A DNA stretch of 44,651 bases. Origin: Gammaproteobacteria bacterium (GTDB lineage: Bacteria > Pseudomonadota > Gammaproteobacteria > JAKDMP01). The DNA is taken from the NCBI GenBank assembly GCA_030452225.1, contig JAKDMP010000002.1, positions 1 to 44,651 on the forward strand, in the 5' to 3' direction. Both the position numbers and the translations under genes were made by a program. Below, in pieces: positions 1-13,800 of the stretch. Every line of letters begins with the position of its first letter. Position 1 is the first letter of the stretch. Below the pieces are notes generated by a model. That model worked only from the letters and a program-made list of their open reading frames with translations. It had not been told where the DNA came from and ran no database searches.

Positions 1-103
1 GCGGGCGATCCTCGGAGCCGAACCAGCCGGCTTCGGCGATGTAGCCGTCGCCGCGGAAGCACGCGTCGTCAATGCCGGCGGCGGTGGAGGCTGAATCGTT
101 CAT
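1..103 (-). CDS. 5' end of an unidentified ORF that runs off the left edge (hypothetical)
   Basis: A minus-strand ATG at 103 opens MNDSASTAAGIDDACFRGDGYIAEAGWFGSEDRP... with no stop before the window edge. It lies 93 nt downstream of the carrier-protein gene on the same strand. No clear SD and no recognisable motif. Confidence 0.3.
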   Translation of the reverse strand, partial: MNDSASTAAGIDDACFRGDGYIAEAGWFGSEDRP

Positions 104-196
104 GGCAACGTAACGGCTGTGGCGGCGATATTCCTGTCCGTCGGACGCCGGGCGTCAGAGTGCGCCGCGGCGCCCCCCCGACGGCCCGCACGCGGG

Positions 197-448
197 TCAC
201 GCCGCCTTCGCGGTCAACTTGGCGACGGCGCTTGCGATGACGGCGATGGATTGGAAGCTGCTGCGCTGGAGCATTTCGTCGGGGAACTCCACGCCGAACT
301 CGTCTTCGAGCGCCAGCATCACGTTGACCGAGGCATGCGAGGTCATCCCCGCTCGGTAGAGGTCGGCATCGTCGTCCAGACTCTCGACGTCCCTGGCCAG
401 GCGGCCATGATCTTGCAGTATGGTGCGTACCTTTTGATGGCTATCCAT
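197..448 (-). CDS. acyl/peptidyl carrier protein (phosphopantetheine-binding)
   Basis: The 83-aa acidic protein has a carrier-protein helix-II region, LYRAGMTSHASVNVMLALEDEFGVEFPDEML, with Ser in the attachment position. A GGGGAG SD sits 6 nt before the ATG. It lies directly downstream of an aa:CP-ligase-like gene. Confidence 0.8.
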   Translation of the reverse strand: MDSHQKVRTILQDHGRLARDVESLDDDADLYRAGMTSHASVNVMLALEDEFGVEFPDEMLQRSSFQSIAVIASAVAKLTAKAA

Positions 449-605
449 GCGGGCTCCCCAAGCCGTCGATCAACAACCCTGCGGCCCGACGGCCGGCGAC
501 CGCGGGTCACGTCGTATTTTCTCACAAGTGGCCCGGGCATTTCAGCTTGCCGACCCCGAATCGTGCCGGATCGTCCCCGCCCGGCCGGATGATTTCATGG
601 TGCGC

Positions 606-1520
606 TCACGGCCAGAGCCTGCCGTACACTTCCGCGGGCCAGTTTTCCGGGTCGAAACCGTGCGCCTGGAACAGGGCCATCACCACGCGTTCCAGCCCAA
701 AGCCGAGGCAGGCCGTGTTGGCGACATTGCCGTCCCCGGTGCGGATTCCGAAGGCCTCCCCGAAGTGCTGCTGGTGAAAATTGAAGGAACAGAGCGCGGT
801 CGGCGCTTCCTCGGAAATCACCGGCGCGGTTATCTCGAATTTCAGTTTCTGTTGGCGCTGCGAGGCCGCCAACATCTTGCCGCCCTTGCCGAAGAACGCG
901 TCGGAGGCGACTTCGGAATGAACCGGCAGATCCAGAGATTCCAGCAGTTGCAACCCGCGCTCGAGCCACATGTCGCGCCAATCGAGCACCTGCGCGGGCG
1001 TGCCGCAGCGCACGAACTCGCGCACCCGGAACGACTGCATTCGGGTCGGCTCCGGCGAGGGCTCGTTGCGAAACACCCAGTTGAGCATCGTCACCAGTCT
1101 GCCCTCGGGGGGCACGGAGCCGGCAAAGCTGGGGTAGACCGGGTAGCACGCCGCCGGGTTCAAGACCACGTCGGTCATGCTCTGGTATCGTTCCCAGTTC
1201 TCGCCGTTGTGGATGGCCTCGCTGAGTTCGCGTGCGTCGAGTTCCCGACCCTTGAAGCTGAAGACCGTGCCGGCGAGATCCGGGAAGTTGGCCATGTGTC
1301 CGGTGCGCTCGAACAGCTTGCGGTCGATTGTCGGCGGGTAAACGAAAAACTCGGCGCCGTCGTCCTTTGCGATATCCGTCACCAGTTTGTTGAAGCGTTC
1401 CAGCACGTCCTCGAATACGTGATTGCGGCCGAAGATGCCGGGCGCGCGGGCCGGAATGATCAACCCGGCCTCGACGAGGCCGCGGAAGAATTCTTCGGCG
1501 TCGTAGGCGGTAGCCGACAT
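606..1520 (-). CDS. amino acid--[acyl-carrier-protein] ligase (truncated class II aaRS / SerRS-like catalytic core, no tRNA-binding domain)
   Basis: The 304-aa protein has class-II motifs: motif-2-like SFRVREFVRCG and motif-3-like CLGFGLERVVMALF. Its size and its adjacency to a carrier-protein gene match the described aa:CP ligase family. Confidence 0.85.
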   Translation of the reverse strand: MSATAYDAEEFFRGLVEAGLIIPARAPGIFGRNHVFEDVLERFNKLVTDIAKDDGAEFFVYPPTIDRKLFERTGHMANFPDLAGTVFSFKGRELDARELSEAIHNGENWERYQSMTDVVLNPAACYPVYPSFAGSVPPEGRLVTMLNWVFRNEPSPEPTRMQSFRVREFVRCGTPAQVLDWRDMWLERGLQLLESLDLPVHSEVASDAFFGKGGKMLAASQRQQKLKFEITAPVISEEAPTALCSFNFHQQHFGEAFGIRTGDGNVANTACLGFGLERVVMALFQAHGFDPENWPAEVYGRLWP

Positions 1521-1523
1521 CGC

Positions 1524-2204
1524 TCAATTCTCCCTTGGAGCCGGCGGCATCGAGGCGCGCTCGGCGATCAGTTCAGGGCCTTCGCGGGCAGGGTTTTTGG
1601 CGGCGTCGCTCACGTGCCGGCTTTCGAGGATTTCGCCGAAGGCCGGAGGGGCAAACTGCTGCAATGCCTCCCGTCCGGACAGATCGGGATCGAGCCAGGC
1701 GCGGGCGCTGCCGGTCGGAATCATCACCGGCGAGCGGTCGTGGATTCGGGCGACCGGCCCGGCGGGAGCGCCGGTCAGGATCGCGAAGCCTTCGTCTCCC
1801 ACAATGCCGCCGAAAAAGAGCGGGCTTCCGTCGCGCGGTTGAAAGAAGTACCACGAGCGGCTTTTCCGGGTCTTCGGCCCCTTGGGCTCGTAGAAGCCGC
1901 TGGCGAAGACGACACAGCGGCGGCGGTCGAAGAGGGGGCGGTATTCGGCCACCCGATGGGCGGATTCGCTGCGTACGTTGATGCGGTTGCCGCGGCGGGT
2001 GGGGAAGGCCCACATCCACTCGCTCACCGCAGGCATGCCTTCGGCGTCGACAGTGGCCATCCAGGTCCGAGTGCCCGGTGCGATGTTGTAGCGGGGCGCT
2101 TCGGCCCGGGCGCCGAATCGAGTGAACAGATCGGAACCCGCCGTCATGTCCAGCGGCTCGAGCCACTCGGAAAGCGGCTGGTAGCGTGCAAACCGTCCGC
2201 ACAT
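1524..2204 (-). CDS. SOS response-associated peptidase (SRAP; YedK/HMCES family)
   Basis: The N-terminus MCGRFA carries the catalytic Cys2. NIAPG, FFFGGI-like and HDRSPV(M) blocks are typical of SRAP. The stop is 3 nt from the next gene's ATG. Confidence 0.9.
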   Translation of the reverse strand: MCGRFARYQPLSEWLEPLDMTAGSDLFTRFGARAEAPRYNIAPGTRTWMATVDAEGMPAVSEWMWAFPTRRGNRINVRSESAHRVAEYRPLFDRRRCVVFASGFYEPKGPKTRKSRSWYFFQPRDGSPLFFGGIVGDEGFAILTGAPAGPVARIHDRSPVMIPTGSARAWLDPDLSGREALQQFAPPAFGEILESRHVSDAAKNPAREGPELIAERASMPPAPREN

Positions 2205-2214
2205 GATCCGTGCC

Positions 2215-2640
2215 TTACCCGGTTTGGCTTGCGCTTCCGGCCAGCCAGCGCGTCATGGCGTCCTTCGGGTTCAGCGCCCGCCCGTCTTTTTCCCCCTCAA
2301 TCAAGGCAGAGTCCCCCGTGACAAGGCAGGCCTTGGGGTCGGCGGCCAGCAAGGCCCAGAGATGAGCATCGCCGGGATCGGGAGCGGCCTGGGCGGCCGG
2401 TGGAGGATCCAGGACAAGGGCGTGTGACAATATGGCCTCGAGAACGGCTTCAACGTTCACGGTTGCCATCCCCGCTTTGCGTTGCAGTACCACGCGATAT
2501 TCTGCCAGCAAATCTGTCGAGACCACAACGGATTCGGTGCCCTCGAGAAGTATGCGTAGCCATCGAACTGTCGGACTGGATTCCCGTTGTGCCAGAAACC
2601 CCGCCACCAGCACGCTGGTGTCAACGATGTAGTGCCTCAT
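2215..2640 (-). CDS. PIN-domain toxin (VapC-like) of a type II TA pair
   Basis: MRHYIVDTSVLV carries the N-terminal PIN Asp and CLVTGDSAL the C-terminal acidic motif. The start overlaps the upstream RHH gene stop by 4 nt (ATGA). Confidence 0.8.
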   Translation of the reverse strand: MRHYIVDTSVLVAGFLAQRESSPTVRWLRILLEGTESVVVSTDLLAEYRVVLQRKAGMATVNVEAVLEAILSHALVLDPPPAAQAAPDPGDAHLWALLAADPKACLVTGDSALIEGEKDGRALNPKDAMTRWLAGSASQTG

Positions 2641-2873
2641 TCGCTGCGAACTTCGCGCGTTACGCGAACGCCGAAGGCCAGCGCATCGGCTTCGGAGAGC
2701 GTCGCATTGGCACGCAGCCGTTCCATCAATCCCTCGACTTCGGATTCTGTTCGCACGCCATTGAGTCTCAGGCTTTCGTCAACAAGCTGGGCTATCGTTA
2801 ATCCGCGCCGGGCCGCTGTCGCCTTGAGCGCCCGCCGCCGTTCCTCCGGGACTTCAACGGTCAGTTTTGACAT
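2637..2873 (-). CDS. ribbon-helix-helix (CopG/Arc-like) antitoxin
   Basis: The 78-aa protein starts MSKLTVEVPEERRRALKATAARRGLTIAQLV, a beta-strand plus helix RHH signature. It overlaps the PIN gene by 4 nt. Confidence 0.75.
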   Translation of the reverse strand: MSKLTVEVPEERRRALKATAARRGLTIAQLVDESLRLNGVRTESEVEGLMERLRANATLSEADALAFGVRVTREVRSE

Positions 2874-2890
2874 GGCTGGATTCCAGTAAA

Positions 2891-2913
2891 TACAGAAAGT
2901 TGTAGTTTCTGTA
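2891..2913 (-). promoter_or_regulatory. perfect inverted repeat TACAGAAA-N7-TTTCTGTA abutting a minus-strand TACAAT -10 (2918..2913); candidate RHH-antitoxin operator and TA promoter
   Basis: The 8-bp arms were read directly. The repeat starts at the last base of the TACAAT hexamer, about 20-40 nt upstream of the RHH ATG (2873). Confidence 0.45.
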
Positions 2914-2924
2914 TTGTATCGCAG
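2909..2924 (+). promoter_or_regulatory. LexA/SOS-box-like sequence CTGTATTGTATCGCAG (CTGT-N8-GCAG; one mismatch to CTGT-N8-ACAG)
   Basis: It lies in the divergent region between the TA operon and the umuD-like gene. It is about 50 nt upstream of the best plus-strand -10 and overlaps the other palindrome, so it may be coincidental. Confidence 0.3.
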
Positions 2925-2956
2925 GCTTCATGCAAGCGGTGAGCGACGCATGAAGC
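2925..2956 (+). promoter_or_regulatory. perfect 9-bp inverted repeat GCTTCATGC-N14-GCATGAAGC over the -35 region of the umuD-like promoter; candidate operator
   Basis: Arms are at 2925-2933 and 2948-2956. It ends 15 nt upstream of an extended -10, TGGTATCAT, at 2971-2979. Confidence 0.4.
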
Positions 2957-3020
2957 AAAAGCGGGCTGCATGGTATCATGATTTTTGTCCCGATATTCAA
3001 AAGGCTGATCCTCCGCACTC

Positions 3021-3590
3021 ATGACCCGGTCTCCATCATCGCACGGCGGGCGTCGTCCCGGCGCCGGGCGGCCCAAGGGCGAGCCGACGGTACGGCTGCG
3101 AGTGCCCACGGGCGTGAAGAGCCGGGTGCGTGCACTGATCGCTGGCTATCGCGCCGATGCCGATAGTAACGCCGTGCCGGTGGCGTCCGATGCGCCGCCG
3201 CGCCGCGTGCCGTATTTCATTGCCAGCGTGCCGGCGGGCTTCCCGTCGCCTGCCGAGCAGTACCTCGAAGAGGCGATCGATCTCAACGTCCACCTGATCC
3301 GCGCCGGCCACGAGGCGGCCACCTACATGATCCGCGTGTCGGGTTCCTCGATGATCGGGGCGGGCATTCACGACGGCGACGAGCTGGTGGTGGATCGCGC
3401 CGAGGAAAAGGTGCTGGGCCGGGTGGTGGTGGCGGTGCACGATGGGGCGATGACCGTCAAGCGGCTGCGCCGGCGCGGCGGCAAGCCGGTACTCGTGGCC
3501 GAGAACCCCGACTATCCCGAGCGGGTGGTCGCCGAGGGCGAGGAGTTCGAGATCTGGGGCGTGGTGACCAAGGTGCTGCACACGCCCTGA
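3021..3590 (+). CDS. umuD: UmuD-like S24 peptidase (Pol V accessory subunit) with an N-terminal basic extension
   Basis: VPAGFPSPAEQY is the Ala-Gly cleavage region. VSGSSMIGAGIHDGD carries the Ser nucleophile and MTVKRL the Lys. The core aligns with E. coli UmuD, but about 50 extra N-terminal residues include GGRRPGAGRPKGE. The start codon is uncertain, since in-frame GTGs lie downstream and there is no strong SD. Confidence 0.85.
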   Translation: MTRSPSSHGGRRPGAGRPKGEPTVRLRVPTGVKSRVRALIAGYRADADSNAVPVASDAPPRRVPYFIASVPAGFPSPAEQYLEEAIDLNVHLIRAGHEAATYMIRVSGSSMIGAGIHDGDELVVDRAEEKVLGRVVVAVHDGAMTVKRLRRRGGKPVLVAENPDYPERVVAEGEEFEIWGVVTKVLHTP

Positions 3591-3649
3591 ACCGGCCCGG
3601 ACTGGCAGGGTTATACTTGGGATTGTGCGGCTCACATTTGAGGCGCGAA

Positions 3650-3847
3650 GTGAAATACCGGATATTGATCGAGCAGGATGAAGACGGCGTGTTCGTGGCG
3701 AGCGTGCCTTCACTTCCCGGCTGCATACCCCAAGGTGACACTCGGGATGAGGCTTTGACCAACGTTCGGGAGGCTATCGAAGCCTATATGGAAAGCCTCG
3801 AAGCGCCACCTTCGATAAACGAAGAAATCGTGGAAATATCCGTGTGA
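3650..3847 (+). CDS. hicB: HicB-family antitoxin (UPF0150, single-domain)
   Basis: VKYRILIEQDEDGVFVASVPSLPGCIPQGDTRDEALTNVREAIEAY is a typical HicB N-domain. A GAGG SD lies 7 nt before the GTG at 3650. The ORF track's TTG at 3617 is an in-frame alternative. The region is visibly A/T-richer than its flanks. Confidence 0.8.
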   Translation: MKYRILIEQDEDGVFVASVPSLPGCIPQGDTRDEALTNVREAIEAYMESLEAPPSINEEIVEISV

Positions 3848-4062
3848 CCCGCTTGCCCGGTATTTCCGGTCGCCAAGCTGTTCAGGTCTTTCAGCGGCTG
3901 GGCCATGAAATTGATCGTCAGCGAGGAAGCCACGTTCATTCCCTTCCACCTCATCGCCGTCTTGTCGTCCCCAATCACCGGGCCGTGGCCAAGGGGACGT
4001 TGAGAGGGCTGATTCGCGAAGCGGGCCTGGCCGTGAATCAATTTACCGAATTATTGAAGTGA
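3844..4062 (+). CDS. hicA: HicA-family mRNA interferase toxin (YcfA-like)
   Basis: Diagnostic motifs are RQRGSHVH...VVPNH...GTLRGLIREAGLAVNQFTELL. The GTG start overlaps the hicB stop (GTGTGA). Confidence 0.85.
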   Translation: MTRLPGISGRQAVQVFQRLGHEIDRQRGSHVHSLPPHRRLVVPNHRAVAKGTLRGLIREAGLAVNQFTELLK

Positions 4063-5381
4063 TGCAATCGGGCGGGATTCCCGAACCAACCGTGCGCCGA
4101 ATTGCCCATATTGACGTCAACGCCTTTTACTGCTCCTGCGAGCGGTTGTTTCGCCCCGACCTGGCCGAGCGGCCGATCGTGGTGCTCTCCAACGGCGACG
4201 GCTGCGTGGTCGCCCGCGATGCCATGGTGAAGCGGCTCGGCGTGCCGATGGGCCAGCCGTGGTTCGAGATGAAGCGCTTTGCCGGGAAGCACGGCATCGT
4301 CGCCTTCAGCAGCAACTACACCTTCTACGGCGACATGAGCCGCCGGGTGATGGATGTGCTCGGCCGGTTCTCACCCGACCAGGAGATCTACAGCATCGAC
4401 GAGAGTTTTCTCGACCTCACCCCGCAGCCGCGGTTGTCCGGCGCGGTCGTGGGGCAGGCCATCCGCGGGCGGGTGCGGCGCTGGACGGGCCTGCCGGTGT
4501 GCGTCGGCATCGGGCGCACGAAGACCGAGGCCAAGCTCGCCGACTGGATCGCCAAGCACGACCCGGCGCTGGGCGGGGTGTGCGATCTTGCCGCGATGAA
4601 CGGGATCGAACGCCGCGACCGGGAGACGGCCATCGAGGTGCGTGAGGTCTGGGGCGTTGGAAGGCGCCTCGCCGAACGCCTGCGCAACCTCGGCATCTTC
4701 ACCGTGGCGGACCTTGCCGCCGCCGACCCGCGGCATTTGCGCGCGCATTTCAGCGTGATGCTGGAGCGTACCGCAAGGGAGCTTCGCGGCGAGGCCTGCC
4801 TGGAGCTGGACGAAGTGCCGCCGCCGCGCCGGCAGATCGTCGCCTCGCGCACCTTCTCCGCGCCGGTGTACACGCCGGGCGAGATGGCCGAAAGCATGCG
4901 CACCTACATGGGCCGCGCCGCGGCGAGGATGCGCGCGCAGGGAAGTGTCGCCGGCGCCGTCGGCGTGTGGATCGAGACGAACCGCTTTCGTACTCATGAA
5001 GCGCAGCACAATGGCTCGGCGACGATTCCGCTCCCCGCGCCCAGCGACGACGAAGCGGTCCTCACCGCCTGGGCCGTGGAACTGATGCGGCGCATTTTCC
5101 GGCCGGGATGTCGCTACTGGAAAAGCGGCGTGATGCTGCTCGACCTCATTCCCAGGGGTAGCGAACAGCGCCTGCTTTTCGATGCGCCGCTGCCCGAGAC
5201 CGAAGCAAGACGCCACCGCGCCATGCAGACGCTGGATGCCGTCAACGGGAAATGGGGTCGCGGCACGCTCGGCCTCGGCAGCGCCGGCCTCCGGGGGCCG
5301 CGCCACTGGAGCATGAAACGCGAACTTCTCTCGCCGCGCTACACGACCTCGTGGCGCGAACTTCCCGTTGCCCGCGCCTGA
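4062..5381 (+). CDS. umuC: Y-family DNA polymerase V catalytic subunit UmuC
   Basis: IAHIDVNAFYCSCERLFRPDLAERPIVVLSNGDGCVVARD aligns with the E. coli UmuC N-terminus. The start is ATG 4062 or GTG 4059, and either overlaps the hicA TGA (4060-4062). Confidence 0.95.
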   Translation: MQSGGIPEPTVRRIAHIDVNAFYCSCERLFRPDLAERPIVVLSNGDGCVVARDAMVKRLGVPMGQPWFEMKRFAGKHGIVAFSSNYTFYGDMSRRVMDVLGRFSPDQEIYSIDESFLDLTPQPRLSGAVVGQAIRGRVRRWTGLPVCVGIGRTKTEAKLADWIAKHDPALGGVCDLAAMNGIERRDRETAIEVREVWGVGRRLAERLRNLGIFTVADLAAADPRHLRAHFSVMLERTARELRGEACLELDEVPPPRRQIVASRTFSAPVYTPGEMAESMRTYMGRAAARMRAQGSVAGAVGVWIETNRFRTHEAQHNGSATIPLPAPSDDEAVLTAWAVELMRRIFRPGCRYWKSGVMLLDLIPRGSEQRLLFDAPLPETEARRHRAMQTLDAVNGKWGRGTLGLGSAGLRGPRHWSMKRELLSPRYTTSWRELPVARA

Positions 5382-5587
5382 TGCGTCATCATTCTTCGTG
5401 ACCGGCCCGGGTGAGGCCATGCCGTGCCGGCTGGTCCGGTTGCCCTGGAGCGGGTGGGACGGTTTTACGGCGATTTTGCGGTATCCTCCCGGGAGGGCAG
5501 GCCCACCCGAGCCCGGGCGCGGCGAGGTTCGCATACGCCCGTCGCCATCCGGATACCGGCGCCACGGTCGCCGCGCAGGAGGAAAAC

Positions 5588-6181
5588 TTGCAGTCACTCG
5601 TTGCCACGCACGGCCTTTACACGGCGGTTTTCTACATCGCCCTCATAGTCTGGGGCATCAACCAGTTGTACGCCAATCGCTACTACTACGCCGCGCCGGG
5701 CCTGGAAGGCCGCAATCGCAGGTCATACTGGTTTTCGGCCGTCATGATTACGGCAGGCATCATCGGCGCGATATTGTGCATGCGGTATGTGCCCGCTACG
5801 ACCTTCCCGTCTGTGCAGCCGGTCATTTTCTGGATCGGCATCGCCCTCATGGCCATGGGGCTTCTCCTTCGCTGGTACGTGATTCGCGTGCTGGCGCGTT
5901 ACTTTGCGCCCGACAAGTCGGTTCGCCCGGACAGGGAAGTCATCGAGAACGGCCCCTTCCGGCAGATCCGCCACCCGGGTTACACGGGCGTCCTGATTAC
6001 GGTGCTGGGTTTCGGGCTGGCCACGACCAACTGGCTCGGCCTGCTCGTTGTGCTCGTCTTTTCCCTCGTCGGCTACGCGTACCGGGTACGGGTGGAGGAG
6101 CAGGTTTTGTGCGAAGCCCTGGGCGATACCTACCGGGAGTACATGCGGCGCACGCGGCGTTTCATCCCGTACCTGTGGTGA
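5588..6181 (+). CDS. isoprenylcysteine carboxyl methyltransferase (ICMT/PEMT) family membrane protein
   Basis: The GPFRQIRHPGYTG...RVEEQVL motif and several TM helices support the call. The TTG at 5588 is preceded by AGGAGG plus 5 nt. The upstream in-frame part of ORF 5411.. is Arg/Gly/Pro-rich and looks non-coding. Confidence 0.8.
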   Translation: MQSLVATHGLYTAVFYIALIVWGINQLYANRYYYAAPGLEGRNRRSYWFSAVMITAGIIGAILCMRYVPATTFPSVQPVIFWIGIALMAMGLLLRWYVIRVLARYFAPDKSVRPDREVIENGPFRQIRHPGYTGVLITVLGFGLATTNWLGLLVVLVFSLVGYAYRVRVEEQVLCEALGDTYREYMRRTRRFIPYLW

Positions 6182-6209
6182 GATGCACCCATGAACGGAA
6201 CGACCTGAC

Positions 6210-6524
6210 ATGAACGAATACCATGTTGCCTTCAGAAAAGTTATCATCGGCGCCGATCCGGATATTCTTGCCCGGGTTTCCGACACCGACGATCTGCTGG
6301 TCGACACGGTCGAGACGATTCGCGCGGGAATCGGCGATTCCGCGAGGGAGGCGCAGTTCGACTTGAACGCGATCCCGAACGGCCATTTCATGGAAATCGA
6401 GTTTCTGCTGGACGGGCAGGCCGTTCAGGGCGTAGTTTTCATGACTCCGTACCTGCCGGATCGGTTCGTGACAATCGTTCGTGAAGTCCTGTCGCAAGTC
6501 GGCATCGAGAACGTGTTCTGCTAA
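6210..6524 (+). CDS. hypothetical small protein (104 aa)
   Basis: A clean ORF 28 nt after the ICMT gene with plausible amino-acid composition. The SD is weak and I recognise no motif. Confidence 0.45.
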   Translation: MNEYHVAFRKVIIGADPDILARVSDTDDLLVDTVETIRAGIGDSAREAQFDLNAIPNGHFMEIEFLLDGQAVQGVVFMTPYLPDRFVTIVREVLSQVGIENVFC

Positions 6525-7119: not shown

Positions 7120-7836
7120 TTACTGCACCAGCGGCGAGGTGGCGGCGTTGAGGTCGACGCCCTCCAGCGCCGCTCCGCCGGCCAGCATGCTGATGTATTG
7201 CCGCAGCGCGCGTTCTTCAGCCGCACTGCGCAACTTGTCGGCCACCTTGCCGGCGACGGCCTCGTAGGGCAGTTGCTCGCCGGGAATACGCCGGTCCACG
7301 GCGACGATGTGGAAGCCGTGCCGGCTGCGCACCAGATCCGGCAGGACACCGATGGTGTTGCCCCCGAATACGGCCTGTTCGAACTCCGGAACGGTGCTGC
7401 CGCGCTGCAATTGCCCGAGTTCGCCGCCGTTGGCGCCGGAGGGGCAGTTGGACTTGGTGCGCGCGCGCTCGGCGAACTTCTCCGGGCGCGCCTGCAATTC
7501 CATGAGCATGCCGCGGGCCAACTTGCGTACCTTCTGTACCGGTACGCCGGGGGCGACCTGGAACAGGATATGGCGGGCGTGTACCAATTCGCCGCTACGG
7601 TACTCCTGCTTGTGGCCATCGTACCAGCGGCGGCATTCCTCTTCGGAGGGTTCGGGCGCCTCGACTTCGCGTTGCAGCAATGTTTCCACCGCTTCCATGG
7701 ACCCTTCCCGATCGGTGTTTCCATCCAGCAGCCCGACCTTGAACGCACGTTGGCGCAGCAACTCGTGGACGGCCGCGAATTCGGGGGTGGGCCACCCGGA
7801 AGGATCGACCTCGATGCCGTTGACGAGAATACCCAT
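7120..7836 (-). CDS. PpiC/parvulin-type peptidyl-prolyl cis-trans isomerase (nar-associated)
   Basis: HARHILFQV...CPSGANGGELGQLQRGSTVPEFEQAVF...SRHGFHIV is a parvulin rotamase core. The ATG at 7836 has a GGAGG SD and overlaps the narI stop (TAATG). The longer ORF-track frame (to 8490) is a trimmed artefact. Confidence 0.85.
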   Translation of the reverse strand: MGILVNGIEVDPSGWPTPEFAAVHELLRQRAFKVGLLDGNTDREGSMEAVETLLQREVEAPEPSEEECRRWYDGHKQEYRSGELVHARHILFQVAPGVPVQKVRKLARGMLMELQARPEKFAERARTKSNCPSGANGGELGQLQRGSTVPEFEQAVFGGNTIGVLPDLVRSRHGFHIVAVDRRIPGEQLPYEAVAGKVADKLRSAAEERALRQYISMLAGGAALEGVDLNAATSPLVQ

Positions 7837-10812: not shown

Positions 10813-13800
10813 GAGCGTTCTCCTGCCGTAGTCGCTTCGGATCGGTTTTCGGGCGCTGGCTCCAGCGGCTCCTCCATCCAGTCGACGTGCGCCATTTTGC
10901 GGACGATCACGGTGTTGTCACGCTCCGAGCCGACCGGGCCGTAATAGTTGAAGTGGTAGGAGAGCTGGGCGTAGCCGCCGACCATCTGCGTCGGCTTCGG
11001 TATTACCCGGGTGGCCGAATTGTGGATGCCGCCGCGTTTTCCGCTGAGTTCGGAACCCGGCACGTTGACCGTCTTGTCCTGCGCGTTCGGCATCAGGCAC
11101 ATGCCCTCGTTGATGCGCTGGCTGACGATGGCGCGGCAGGCCGCCACGCCGTTGGCGTTGAAGCATTCGACCCAGTCGTTGTCCCGGATGCCGGCCTTTT
11201 TGGCATCGGCCTCGGAGAGCCACAGGATCATGCCGCCGCGCGCGAGCGTCAGCATCATCAGGTTGTCCATGTAGGTGCTGTGAATGCTCCACTTCTGGTG
11301 CGGCGTGATGAAGCTCAGCACGATCTCCGCATTGCCGTTGCTTTTCCTGCCGAGCACGTCGTGAATCGTGCGGGTATCGATCGGCGGGCGGTACAGCGCC
11401 AGCGATTCGCCGTAGTCACGGAACCAGGGGTGGTCGAGATAGAAGTGCTGGCGCCCGGTCAGCGTATGCCAGGGAATCTGTTCGTGCACATTGAGGTAGA
11501 AGCCGCTGTAGCCGACCTCTTCGTTCATCGCGCCCGTCCAGGTGGGCGCGGTGATGGCCTTTTTGGGCTGGGCCTGGAGATCGCGAAAACGGAACTTCTC
11601 GTTCTCGCGCCCCGCGGCCAGGTGTTTGTGGCTCAGGCCGGTGGCCGCGGAGAGTTCCTCCCAGGCGCGCACGGACACCTCGCCGTTGGAAACCGGATCG
11701 AGCATGAGAATGGTCTCGCAGGCATCGATGTCCGTGTCGAGGCGCGGACGTCCTTTCGCCGGGCCGTCCTCCACGGTTCCGTTGAGCGCGGCGAGTTGAT
11801 CGGTCTCGGGCTTCATGTTCCATTCGACCCCGCTGCCGCCGTCGCCGAGGGTGTCCAGCAGCGGCCCGAGCGAGGTGTAATGCGCGTGAACGGCCCGGTA
11901 GTCGCGTTCGACGAAGCTGATGTTCGGGCCGGTGACGCCCGGCACGAGATCGCACTCGCCCTTCTTCCAGTCGCGCACCTCGAAAGCCTGCGCCATCTCG
12001 CCGGGCGTGTCGTGCCCGATGGGCGAGAGCACCACATCTTTTTCGGTGCCCAGATGGCCTTCGGCCAACTCCGAGAATTTTTTCGCCAGCGCCTTGAAAA
12101 TCTCCCAGTCGCTCTTTGATTCGTACACCGGATCCACGGCGGCCGTGAACGGGTTGATGAACGGGTGCATGTCGGTCGTCGAAAGGTCCTGCTTTTCGTA
12201 CCACGATGCCGTGGGCAACACGACATCGGAGTACAGCGCCGTCGTGGACATGCGGAAGTCGAGCGTCACCAGCAGGTCGAGCTTGCCCTCCGGCCCGGGG
12301 TCACGCCAGGTTACCTCCTCGGGTTTCTCGTCGCCCGTCTCGCCTAGATCCGCGCCCTGGATCGCGTCGGGGGTTCCCAGGAGGTGCTTCAGGAAGTACT
12401 CGTGCCCCTTGCCGGAGGAAGCCAGCAGGTTCGCGCGCCAGATGAACAGATTGCGCGGGAAATTGTCCGGATGGTCGGGATCTTCGCAAGCCATCCCGAG
12501 TTCGCCGGATGTCAATGCGTCCACGACGTATTGCTTCGGGTCCTTCCCGGACGCTTCGGCCGCGCGCGCGACCTCCAGCGGGTTCCTGTCGAGTTGCGGC
12601 GCCGACGGCAGCCAGCCCATGCGCTTGGCGCGCGTGCCGTGATCGACCAGGGTGCCGCTGTGGCGCTCCGGGTCGCCCAGCGGAGAGAGAAGATCGGCCG
12701 GCTTCACGGTTTCGTAGCGCCACTGGTCGGAGTGCAGGTAGTAGAAGTCGGTGCCGGCCACCTGGCGCGGCGGCCGCTGCCAGTCGAGCGCGAAGGCCAG
12801 GCAGGACCAGCCGACTTCGGAGCGCACGGCCTCCTGGCCGGTGTAGTGCGCAAAGCCGCCGCCCGATTGGCCGACCGTGCCGCACAGCATCAGCAGATTG
12901 ATGATGACGCGGTAGCTGGCGTCCTGGTGGAACCAGTGGTTCATGCCCGAGCCGATGATCACCATCGAGCGGCCGCGGGTCTTTTCGGCGTTTTCCGCAA
13001 AGCCGCGCGCCACCTGGATCACGTCGTCGGCGGGCGTGCCGGTGATGACCTCCTGCCACGCCGGCGTGTAGGCTACATCGTCTTCGTAGCTTTTTGCGCA
13101 ACGGCCGCCGAGGCCGCGGTCCAGCCCGTAATGGGCGCACAAGAGATCGAACACGGTCGCCACCATGACGTCGCCGTCCTTGCCGGCGAGCTTGCGGGCC
13201 GGCACCTTGCGCAGCAGCACGTCGTCCTGCTCGTTGGCCGGGTAACCCTCCTTGCCGATGCCGCCGAAGTAGGGGAAGGCCACGTCGAGCGCCTCGTCGC
13301 GCTGCTCGATTTCGGTGAGCTGAAGTTCGATGTCGCGGCCGTCGGCGGTTTTCTGCTCGAGGTTCCATTTGCCGCGTTCGACGCTCGCCTCGCCGGTCCA
13401 GTGGAATCCCATCGAACCACGCGGCACGACCGGGCTACCGTCGGCATCGAAGCCGACGCATTTCCAGTCGGCATTTTCCGGCGTGCCCAACGCGTCGTCG
13501 AAGTCGCTCGCACGCAGGTAACGGCCCGGAATCCAGCGCTCGCCGTCCTTTCTTAGCGTCACCAGCATCGGCAAGTCGGTATAGCGGCAGCAGTAGTCCT
13601 GGAAGTATTCGGCCTGGCGATCGAGAAAAAACTCGCGCAGCACCACGTGGCCCATGGCGATGGCCATGGCGCCGTCGGTGCCTTGCCTGGGATGCAGCCA
13701 GATGTCGGCGAACTTGGTCGCCTCCGAATAATCGGGGGAGACGACGGCGACCTGGGTTCCGTTGTAGCGTGCCTCGACGAGAAAATGCGCGTCCGGCGTA

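Follow-up and report, generated by a model that had tools for sequence, protein, structure and literature searches.

The six minus-strand ORFs at positions 1-2873 of the window, i.e. of the whole 44.6-kb stretch of DNA analysed here, are very probably a composite of two unrelated units that were joined by an old illegitimate recombination. The first unit would be the remnant of a widespread cluster of 8-11 genes, which in its full form comprises an acyl-CoA-dehydrogenase-like gene (ACAD), an aa:CP ligase, DUF1839, in some cases a PPTase, an ACP, a GH2-like protein, a two-domain alpha/beta hydrolase, Acyl_transf_3, Abhydrolase_2, a flavin reductase and a second ACAD, and which would here be reduced to ligase, ACP and hydrolase. 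The second unit would be an SOS cassette of the 'SRAP divergent from umuD-umuC' type, which is often found on mobile elements. The original prediction had offered two readings of this string, i.e. a new damage-linked pathway coupling SRAP to the ligase, or the chance joining of two cassettes. It is the latter that is supported by our survey of other genomes and by a remnant of the ACAD gene at the junction.

The ORFs follow each other in the order RHH, PIN, SRAP, aa:CP ligase, ACP and an edge-truncated ORF (Table 1), and the junction lengths given originally all hold: RHH and PIN overlap by 4 nt, PIN and SRAP are 10 nt apart, and SRAP is separated from the ligase by 3 nt (TGAGCGATG), followed by spacers of 157 nt between ligase and ACP and 93 nt between ACP and the truncated ORF. 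The family names assigned to the five complete genes were likewise borne out by profile searches, for RHH by a sub-threshold ParD match only. umuDC had been named as the divergent neighbour; umuD and umuC are indeed present and divergent, but hicBA sits between them. The same sequence is carried by an independent Logan assembly (L001; 100 % over 3300 nt), with an identical SRAP-ligase junction, and elsewhere the window carries ordinary chromosomal genes (nar, mod, Moco, tamAB, ccm).

Table 1. Features at the left-hand end of the window, with window coordinates
Feature	Position	Strand	Remarks
Truncated ORF	1-103	-	34 codons from the 5' end of a Hydrolase_4-type alpha/beta hydrolase with two domains; truncated at window edge
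Spacer after GH2-like loss	104-196	-	175-196 = stub, first 22 nt of GH2-like gene
ACP	197-448	-	83 aa; GMTS motif; dedicated; NF005480 and PF00550
Spacer	449-605	-	Position of DUF1839 in relatives (plus PPTase in some)
aa:CP ligase	606-1520	-	304 aa; truncated methanogen-type SerRS-like class II core; NF005479
ACAD 3' remnant	1521-1568	-	In-register alignment with ACAD tails of relatives
SRAP/YedK-type gene, chimeric 3' end	1524-2204	-	226 aa; PF02586; residues 1 to ~214 SRAP, then 12 ACAD-derived
PIN_3-family toxin	2215-2640	-	141 aa; PF13470
RHH/ParD-like antitoxin candidate	2637-2873	-	78 aa; PF09386 sub-threshold
Divergent control region	2874-3020	.	Between RHH and umuD
umuD-like S24 peptidase	3021-3590	+	189 aa; ~65-aa N-terminal extension; NF007621
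hicB-like (3617-3847) and hicA (3844-4062)	3617-4062	+	PF15919 and PF07927; between umuD and umuC
umuC, Y-family polymerase subunit	4059-5381	+	NF002955; IMS, IMS_C and DUF4113 domains

The ligase matched the NCBIfam model NF005479, 'amino acid--[acyl-carrier-protein] ligase', at 383.4 bits (cut-off 357), and SerRS models matched the catalytic core only, i.e. residues 118-300, with 59-74 bits against cut-offs of 490-611. Against the structures of Bll0957 (4h2w/3mey) it scored 235 bits (E=9e-69). In the alignment with Bll0957, the putative Cys/Glu/Cys ligands of the active-site zinc are matched by C125, E168 and C271 of the window ligase, and all three are conserved without exception in 21 relatives. 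Judging from these matches, the protein of 304 aa is a genuine aa:CP ligase, as originally predicted, and not a fragment of a SerRS. The ACP matched NF005480 (112 bits, cut-off 72) as well as PF00550, and is 62-74 % identical to the ACPs in the clusters of relatives. Neither gene bears signs of decay: dN/dS of the ligase is 0.13-0.20, with intact clusters spanning 0.08-0.22, and private changes at highly conserved columns number 2 of 111 in the ligase and 0 of 33 in the ACP. By these measures both are intact and under purifying selection, and the ligase presumably continues to charge the ACP with a small amino acid.

The genomic context of the ligase was surveyed by tblastn of 7-kb flanks in 80 species-representative genomes with a ligase 62-83 % identical to that of the window. 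Of the 79 loci that were informative, 77 have an ACAD gene immediately upstream of the ligase and 78 have DUF1839 immediately downstream, and the gap between the ACAD stop and the ligase ATG is -1 to +4 nt in most of the loci measured (35/46). MAG contexts agree with this ACAD-ligase-DUF1839 arrangement, and our survey encountered the conserved cluster in Rhodanobacteraceae, Kofleriaceae, Steroidobacteraceae and others. The window locus departs from the intact cluster, with just 45-48 nt of ACAD and without DUF1839. SRAP, PIN, RHH, UmuD and UmuC were absent within 7 kb of the ligase in all 80 genomes. Conversely, neither ligase nor ACP was found at any of 84 SRAP loci, which come from a metagenome scan yielding mostly distant SRAPs (~30 % identity), so that this reciprocal test is broad and thin among close relatives; 10 of these loci had UmuC or UmuD. 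The SRAP-ligase adjacency is thus missing from related genomes, where each cassette occurs alone, an outcome that the original prediction had itself named as refuting the proposed coupling.

The recombination point can be recognized within the SRAP gene itself. The protein matched PF02586 over residues 1-204 (112 bits), and YedK structures align with it up to residue 213. Residues C2, N76, E106 and H155, aligned to YedK, are invariant in the SRAP alignment, and the protein presumably still crosslinks to abasic sites in ssDNA. Its homologues match only ~95 % of the ORF and diverge after GPELIA, their C-terminus being ...NEGPELIAxxxQGELF and that of the window SRAP ...REGPELIAERASMPPAPREN. Instead, the last 12-14 SRAP codons can be aligned, without any shift of register or frame, to the ACAD tails of relatives, and the stop is the same. 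The parts of this remnant are the microhomology ATCGCC (1563-1568), the ligase Shine-Dalgarno sequence AGGGAG (1530-1535), the stop TGA (1524-1526) and the 3-nt gap. In a position-specific randomisation the remnant scored 93, the null being 43.7 +/- 6.4, and 0 of 5000 random segments reached its value; this test superseded a window-wide nhmmer scan with a 76-sequence ACAD-tail profile, in which the remnant ranked fifth and was not significant (E=1.2). The ACAD homology of the SRAP tail is convincing only given its place beside the ligase. The remnant is identical at 28 of 42 nt, compared with 65 % at 4-fold sites, and has changed in 8 of 14 residues, compared with 51 of 304 in the ligase (Fisher p=0.001), i.e. 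it appears to have drifted about as far as neutral sites.

Further traces of the ancestral cluster are found to the left of the ligase. L009 and L085, the closest relatives, show DNA homology to the window in three blocks only, i.e. window 594-1568, 175-433 and 1-108, which correspond to the ACAD tail plus ligase, the ACP together with 22 nt of GH2, and the start of the hydrolase, respectively; ligase, ACP and hydrolase start are collinear with both relatives at 78-81 % DNA identity. Homology to L009 ends 12 nt past the ligase stop (594) and returns in the first ACP codons (433), and the relatives have ~1.0-1.4 kb where the window has its ligase-ACP spacer. At the next spacer they hold a GH2-like gene of ~2.4 kb, of which the window retains a stub directly after the ACP stop (196->175 vs L085 9244-9265, 20 of 22 nt identical). 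Window 1-108 corresponds to L009 11807-11700 (79 % identity, blastn), and the edge ORF MNDSASTAAGIDDACFRGDGYIAEAGWFGSEDRP aligns with L009 MNDRAPAAASTGGVLFRGDGYTAEAGWFGPEDRP. By this alignment the edge-truncated ORF is the two-domain alpha/beta hydrolase of the ligase cluster, whose 607-aa counterpart in L009 matched PF12146 and, below cut-off, TIGR03101 and TIGR03100. Since the ACAD and GH2 stubs persist, the reduced cluster is ruled out as the ancestral state. ACAD, DUF1839, PPTase and GH2 were found nowhere else in the window (tblastn; nothing below E=0.02). Both assemblies stop at the same left-hand base, an exact-protein look-up of ligase and ACP having returned one further contig, and further to the left the genome may carry a second cluster in intact form, or the genes that are missing here.

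Evidence for the other unit comes from the closest SRAPs. All three (60-69 % identity) are divergent from umuD-umuC, and two of them lie on elements carrying integrase/AlpA or TraG. In the window, the umuD-like protein matched NF007621 (140 bits, cut-off 110) and umuC scored 417.7 bits with NF002955, just under the cut-off of 431. While umuD and umuC overlap in the related cassettes L089, L090 and L092, here they are separated by hicBA (hicB-like PF15919, 45 bits; hicA PF07927, 45.6 bits). The PIN protein matched PF13470 (49.9 bits, cut-off 27) and, sub-cut-off, TIGR00305; the RHH protein matched ParD PF09386 over its N-terminal 35 residues only (26.3 bits, below the cut-off of 27.3) and had no NCBIfam match. 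The cassette would have been colonised by two toxin-antitoxin pairs, i.e. RHH-PIN upstream of SRAP and hicBA between umuD and umuC. The control region contains a motif TTGAAT-N11-AATCAT (2978-3000) common to the umuD-SRAP spacers of L089 and L092, an inverted repeat TACAGAAA-N7-TTTCTGTA (2891-2913) and CTGT-N8-GCAG (2909-2924). The inverted repeat aside, the proposal that the only obvious promoter and operator lie upstream of RHH could not be confirmed, as a consensus scan of 1-3200 returned no promoter-like site, i.e. no consensus sigma-70; the same interval had no convincing terminator. Rfam and tRNA scans of the region were empty or at chance level. A repeat search for island boundaries gave a single 25-nt direct repeat of 80 % identity (1555-1579 / 7463-7487), which is probably due to chance. 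Past umuC the window showed no synteny with the flanks of L009 or L085, so that it could not be mapped how far the rearrangement extends.

In the scenario that we favour, the crossover would have taken place at the 6-nt microhomology ATCGCC (Ile-Ala), which is common to the SRAP motif GPELIA and the ACAD tail RIA. The SRAP reading frame would since then continue through the 12 terminal ACAD codons to the old ACAD stop, leaving the old Shine-Dalgarno sequence and the 3-nt gap ahead of the ligase ATG. The native ligase promoter would have been lost along with ACAD, and the ligase would now be transcribed by read-through from the RHH-PIN-SRAP transcript. The 3-nt junction, previously taken as a sign of coupling, is inherited from the ancestral ACAD-ligase junction, and a joint SRAP-ligase chemistry probably does not exist.

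Starting from the same scar, it is conceivable, if rather unlikely, that the ligase-ACP-hydrolase trio was retained by selection and works, being expressed from an SOS- and/or antitoxin-controlled RHH-PIN-SRAP promoter. Consistent with this are the intactness of ligase and ACP under purifying selection and the seemingly neutral drift of the ACAD remnant over a time comparable to the window-L009 divergence; moreover, the ligase retains its Shine-Dalgarno sequence and ATG, and nothing resembling a terminator lies between SRAP and ligase. A second, independently reduced ACP-ligase-hydrolase arrangement, in L078, points in the same direction; its hydrolase, however, looks frameshifted, suggesting decay. 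In addition, the near-constant flanking of the ligase by ACAD and DUF1839 in relatives (77-78 of 79) makes these genes probably essential to the pathway, non-synonymous change is about twofold on the window branch by a rough relative-rate estimate, and the window's arrangement occurs once only. If true, this would be a natural promoter capture, rendering carrier-protein aminoacylation damage- or stress-inducible in this lineage, with a trio able to function without ACAD, DUF1839 and GH2. Regardless, the neutral-like drift of the remnant beside an intact ligase and ACP suggests that selection may have maintained the reduced module since the fusion, and that it may therefore still do something.

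A dedicated new pathway, in which SRAP, ligase, ACP and hydrolase would act jointly, e.g. by attaching an aminoacyl group to a DNA-protein crosslink or to a small molecule related to damage, is highly improbable: the tight co-directional order and the common upstream control region speak for it, but the order lacks a parallel at the 80 ligase and 84 SRAP loci, its tightness is accounted for by the inherited junction, core enzymes of the cluster were deleted and not replaced, and the conserved partner of SRAP is umuDC. That an assembler mis-joined two genomic regions is hardly credible, since, even though the shared left end of both assemblies hints at a difficult region nearby, two assemblies have the identical junction, the microhomology of ~6 nt is far under any assembly k-mer, the remnant has diverged and its fusion is in frame, and two more gene-sized deletions lie within sequence otherwise collinear with relatives.

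With the recombination scar as the preferred reading, a false lead is removed, i.e. the SRAP-ligase junction provides no guilt-by-association evidence either for what aa:CP ligases do or for a new role of SRAP. The locus is at the same time a textbook example of an in-frame gene fusion inheriting its neighbour's stop codon, ribosome-binding site and translational coupling. As a comparative by-product, ACAD upstream and the papain-like DUF1839 downstream emerge as nearly invariant in this ligase clade, usually followed by ACP, the GH2-like gene, the two-domain alpha/beta hydrolase and Acyl_transf_3. Based on this composition, it is tempting to speculate that the missing product of the cluster should be looked for in the amino-acid-derived acyl decoration of a glycan or envelope polymer.

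The aa:CP ligases Bll0957 and Bll6282 of Bradyrhizobium and Atu2573 of Agrobacterium were described by Mocibob et al. 2010/2013, as cited in PMC9437257, according to which the family is still without an assigned biological role; a literature search by locus tag found no newer functional work. The window ligase, only a distant relative of these enzymes, shares with them a class II SerRS-like core that is truncated and has no tRNA-binding domain, as well as the putative zinc ligands, and has its dedicated small ACP downstream, but it lacks the ACAD and DUF1839 that flank the ligase in nearly all of its close relatives; the DUF1839 context of the cluster has been noted before (PMC10318531). Compared with the conserved ACAD-ligase-DUF1839-ACP-GH2-hydrolase cluster, ligase, ACP and hydrolase start are collinear, whereas three genes are missing and the upstream flank is an SOS cassette instead. 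Compared with other SRAP/YedK genes beside umuDC, the window SRAP keeps Cys2, Asn, Glu and His as well as the divergence from umuD-umuC, but it has a foreign, ACAD-derived C-terminus of 12 residues and is separated from the control region by RHH-PIN, as umuD is from umuC by hicBA.

Finally, the cluster resembles the exosortase-A acyl-carrier system, TIGR03100 and TIGR03101 being the exosortase-A-associated hydrolases 1 and 2, which occur with an ACP and an AMP-forming ligase. The loading enzyme here is aaRS-like and not ANL-type, and no exosortase was seen. The two alpha/beta-hydrolase domains of the cluster hydrolase resemble hydrolase 2 and hydrolase 1, at 97-98 bits and thus far under the cut-offs of 168 and 203, and the protein is likewise encoded beside an ACP and an adenylating enzyme.

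All six minus-strand ORFs of the original prediction are present exactly where it had put them, with the same spacings (from RHH: a 4-nt overlap, then 10, 3, 157 and 93 nt) and with umuDC as the divergent neighbour. Profile searches bore out the names given to the ligase, ACP, SRAP and PIN proteins, the RHH protein matching its family below threshold only. The ligase scored 383 bits against the NCBIfam amino acid--[acyl-carrier-protein] (aa:CP) ligase model (cut-off 357), matched the Bll0957 crystal structures (E=9e-69) and shows conservation of C125, E168 and C271, aligned with what we take to be the Zn ligands of Bll0957. A SerRS fragment was ruled out, since SerRS models cover the ligase in its catalytic core only. 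PF02586 covers residues 1–204 of the SRAP (a YedK/HMCES-type peptidase), in which Cys2, Asn76, Glu106 and His155 are retained; in YedK-type SRAPs, Cys2 crosslinks to abasic sites in ssDNA through a thiazolidine.

Genes around the SRAP–ligase junction and blocks of homology to the closest ligase relatives
Feature	Positions	Strand	Description
Truncated ORF	1–103	−	34 residues; start of cluster hydrolase
ACP	197–448	−	NF005480 cut-off passed
Ligase	606–1520	−	304 aa; NCBIfam equivalog model passed
SRAP	1524–2204	−	PF02586
PIN	2215–2640	−	PIN_3 protein
RHH	2637–2873	−	family match sub-threshold only
umuD-like gene	3021–3590		divergent to the string
umuC	4059–5381		divergent to the string
Homology block	594–1568		ACAD 3′ end (~48 nt), then the ligase and a further 12 nt
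Homology block	175–433		ACP and first 22 nt of GH2-like gene
Homology block	1–108		hydrolase gene start

While the observation is confirmed, its functional interpretation, i.e. a damage-linked pathway coupling SRAP to carrier-protein loading, is not supported. A one-genome-per-species scan gave 80 loci with ligases 62–83 % identical, which were surveyed by tblastn over 7 kb on each side: SRAP, PIN, RHH, UmuD and UmuC were found at none of them, and neither ligase nor ACP at any of 84 SRAP loci (mostly distant, ~30 % identity), of which 10 contained UmuC or UmuD. MAG contigs with 74–76 % identical ligases share one conserved cluster, i.e. an acyl-CoA-dehydrogenase-like gene (ACAD), ligase, DUF1839, (PPTase), ACP, a GH2-like gene and a ~595-aa hydrolase, followed in varying order by Acyl_transf_3, Abhydrolase_2, flavin reductase and a second ACAD-like gene. 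ACAD was directly upstream of the ligase in 77 and DUF1839 directly downstream in 78 of the 79 informative loci. Since the gap between ACAD stop and ligase ATG is −1 to +4 nt in 35/46 measured loci, the tight junction is an ancestral property of ACAD–ligase, and the 3-nt gap is no sign of SRAP–ligase coupling. Cluster variants include locus L064 (7001–9886), where DUF1839 lies between two paralogous ligases, the second of which shares 57 % identity with the window ligase, and the gammaproteobacterial MAG locus L078 (6273–9822), an independently reduced cluster of ACP, GH2 stub, ligase and a hydrolase seemingly split into two ORFs, without ACAD or DUF1839.

The closest ligase relatives, in loci L009 and L085 (83 % identical as protein, 81 % as DNA), share only three blocks with the window. 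In codon-level alignments, the SRAP tail (...GPE LIA ERASMPPAPREN* GCG ATG; asterisk, stop) and the relatives' ACAD tails (...RIA(G)KSASMLLVxKxx*, 3–4 nt, ATG) have frame, stop position and Shine–Dalgarno (AGGGAG vs AAGGAG) in common. Because all SRAP relatives, unlike the window, read ...xxxQGELF beyond GPELIA, and YedK aligns only up to residue 213, the crossover is placed at the shared ATCGCC (Ile-Ala, ~1563–1568). The statistics call for caution: when a profile built from 76 ACAD tails was run over the whole window with nhmmer, the site ranked only fifth (E=1.2). A position-specific test, which compared the 63 nt preceding the stop with the six closest ACAD tails, scored 93 vs 43.7 ± 6.4 for random window segments (0/5000 reached 93), and the ACAD-tail alignments at the junction were also in register. 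The junction is a scar of composite origin, with an ACAD 3′ remnant inside the SRAP ORF. ACAD, DUF1839, PPTase and GH2 were not detectable elsewhere in the window. A 25-nt imperfect direct repeat (80 %; 1555–1579 and 7463–7487), one copy of which spans the crossover, is probably due to chance; it could also represent the limits of an inserted block.

The truncated ORF's 34 residues match the cluster hydrolase at its N-terminus, and the window therefore retains ligase–ACP–hydrolase, having lost ACAD, DUF1839 and GH2. These deletions left as their footprints the two longer spacers of the original prediction. The window (at position 1) and L001 (at position 7413), an independent Logan contig with identical sequence, both break off 34 codons into the hydrolase gene, at points no more than 1 nt apart, suggesting that a repeat or strain heterogeneity lies just to the left. 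The L009 hydrolase (11705–13528; 607 aa; Hydrolase_4 match in Pfam) is a fusion of two alpha/beta-hydrolase domains resembling, both below cut-off, exosortase-A-associated hydrolases 2 (N-terminal) and 1 (C-terminal), a hint that aa:CP ligase clusters may decorate an exopolysaccharide.

The ligase dN/dS against relatives was 0.13–0.20 (intact clusters: 0.08–0.22). Private changes affected 2 of 111 ligase columns conserved to at least 97 % (tied for the maximum, no outlier) and 0/33 ACP columns, and a rough relative-rate comparison suggested ~2-fold more non-synonymous change on the window branch than on the L009 branch. The ACAD remnant is identical to L009 at 28/42 nt (ligase 4-fold sites: 65 %), with 8/14 residues changed vs 51/304 in the ligase (Fisher p=0.001), and P-P-A replaces the L-L-V of at least 71/76 relatives. 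These figures, small as the numbers are, suggest an old fusion after which the ligase remained under selection.

According to the account in PMC9437257 (Mocibob 2010/2013), aa:CP ligases activate a small amino acid and thioesterify the ACP phosphopantetheine; by analogy, the window ligase would load its own ACP. DUF1839 is papain-like with a C-T/S-H triad (PMC10318531). In intact clusters, processing of the group and its transfer, probably to a glycan, would fall to the ACAD-like flavoenzyme, DUF1839, hydrolase and Acyl_transf_3, a pathway that would be truncated in the window genome. With its native promoter presumably lost, the ligase would be expressed only via RHH–PIN–SRAP read-through or a cryptic promoter; that the reduced module still functions and is expressed in a stress-inducible way seems unlikely. 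All parts belong to known families, and the arrangement, seen only in the window and the identical Logan contig, is a single-lineage accident. The biological role of aa:CP ligases is still unknown (PMC9437257), a literature search for newer functional work gave no matches, and the SRAP–ligase locus sheds no light on it.

Among the SRAP homologues whose context could be used, the three closest (60–69 % identity) are each divergent from umuD-umuC, without a toxin–antitoxin pair between umuD and SRAP. Therefore, SRAP is part of an SOS cassette, and RHH-PIN and hicBA, one per arm, are secondary insertions. Two of these three cassettes are on elements (integrase and AlpA, or TraG-like genes). Since umuD and umuC overlap in all three, the window operon was split by a ~470-nt toxin–antitoxin insertion; the hicB-like/hicA pair lies at 3617–4062, hicA overlapping the umuC start by 4 nt. 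The SRAP may act by YedK-like crosslinking alongside translesion synthesis by UmuD′2C, with one SOS-type control region serving both, and the cassette may be stabilised by its two toxin–antitoxin pairs. Beyond this, the window consists of ordinary chromosomal DNA (narGHI, modABC, Moco synthesis, tamAB, ccmF), with no tRNA genes in the window and no Rfam matches within the scanned positions 1–6500.

An inverted repeat, TACAGAAA-N7-TTTCTGTA (2891–2913), and CTGT-N8-GCAG (2909–2924) adjoin the RHH start. Separately, the umuD–SRAP spacer holds a palindrome-like motif, TTGAAT-N11/12-AWTCAW, in the window (2978–3000) and in the cassettes of L089 (1784–1855) and L092 (5237–5313), a candidate operator of the cassette family that differs from the E. 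coli-type LexA box. The UmuD-like protein (189 aa) has a ~65-residue basic N-terminal extension (GGRRPGAGRPKG...; 3021–3215), and its close relatives are also long (159–196 aa), whereas E. coli UmuD lacks this extension.
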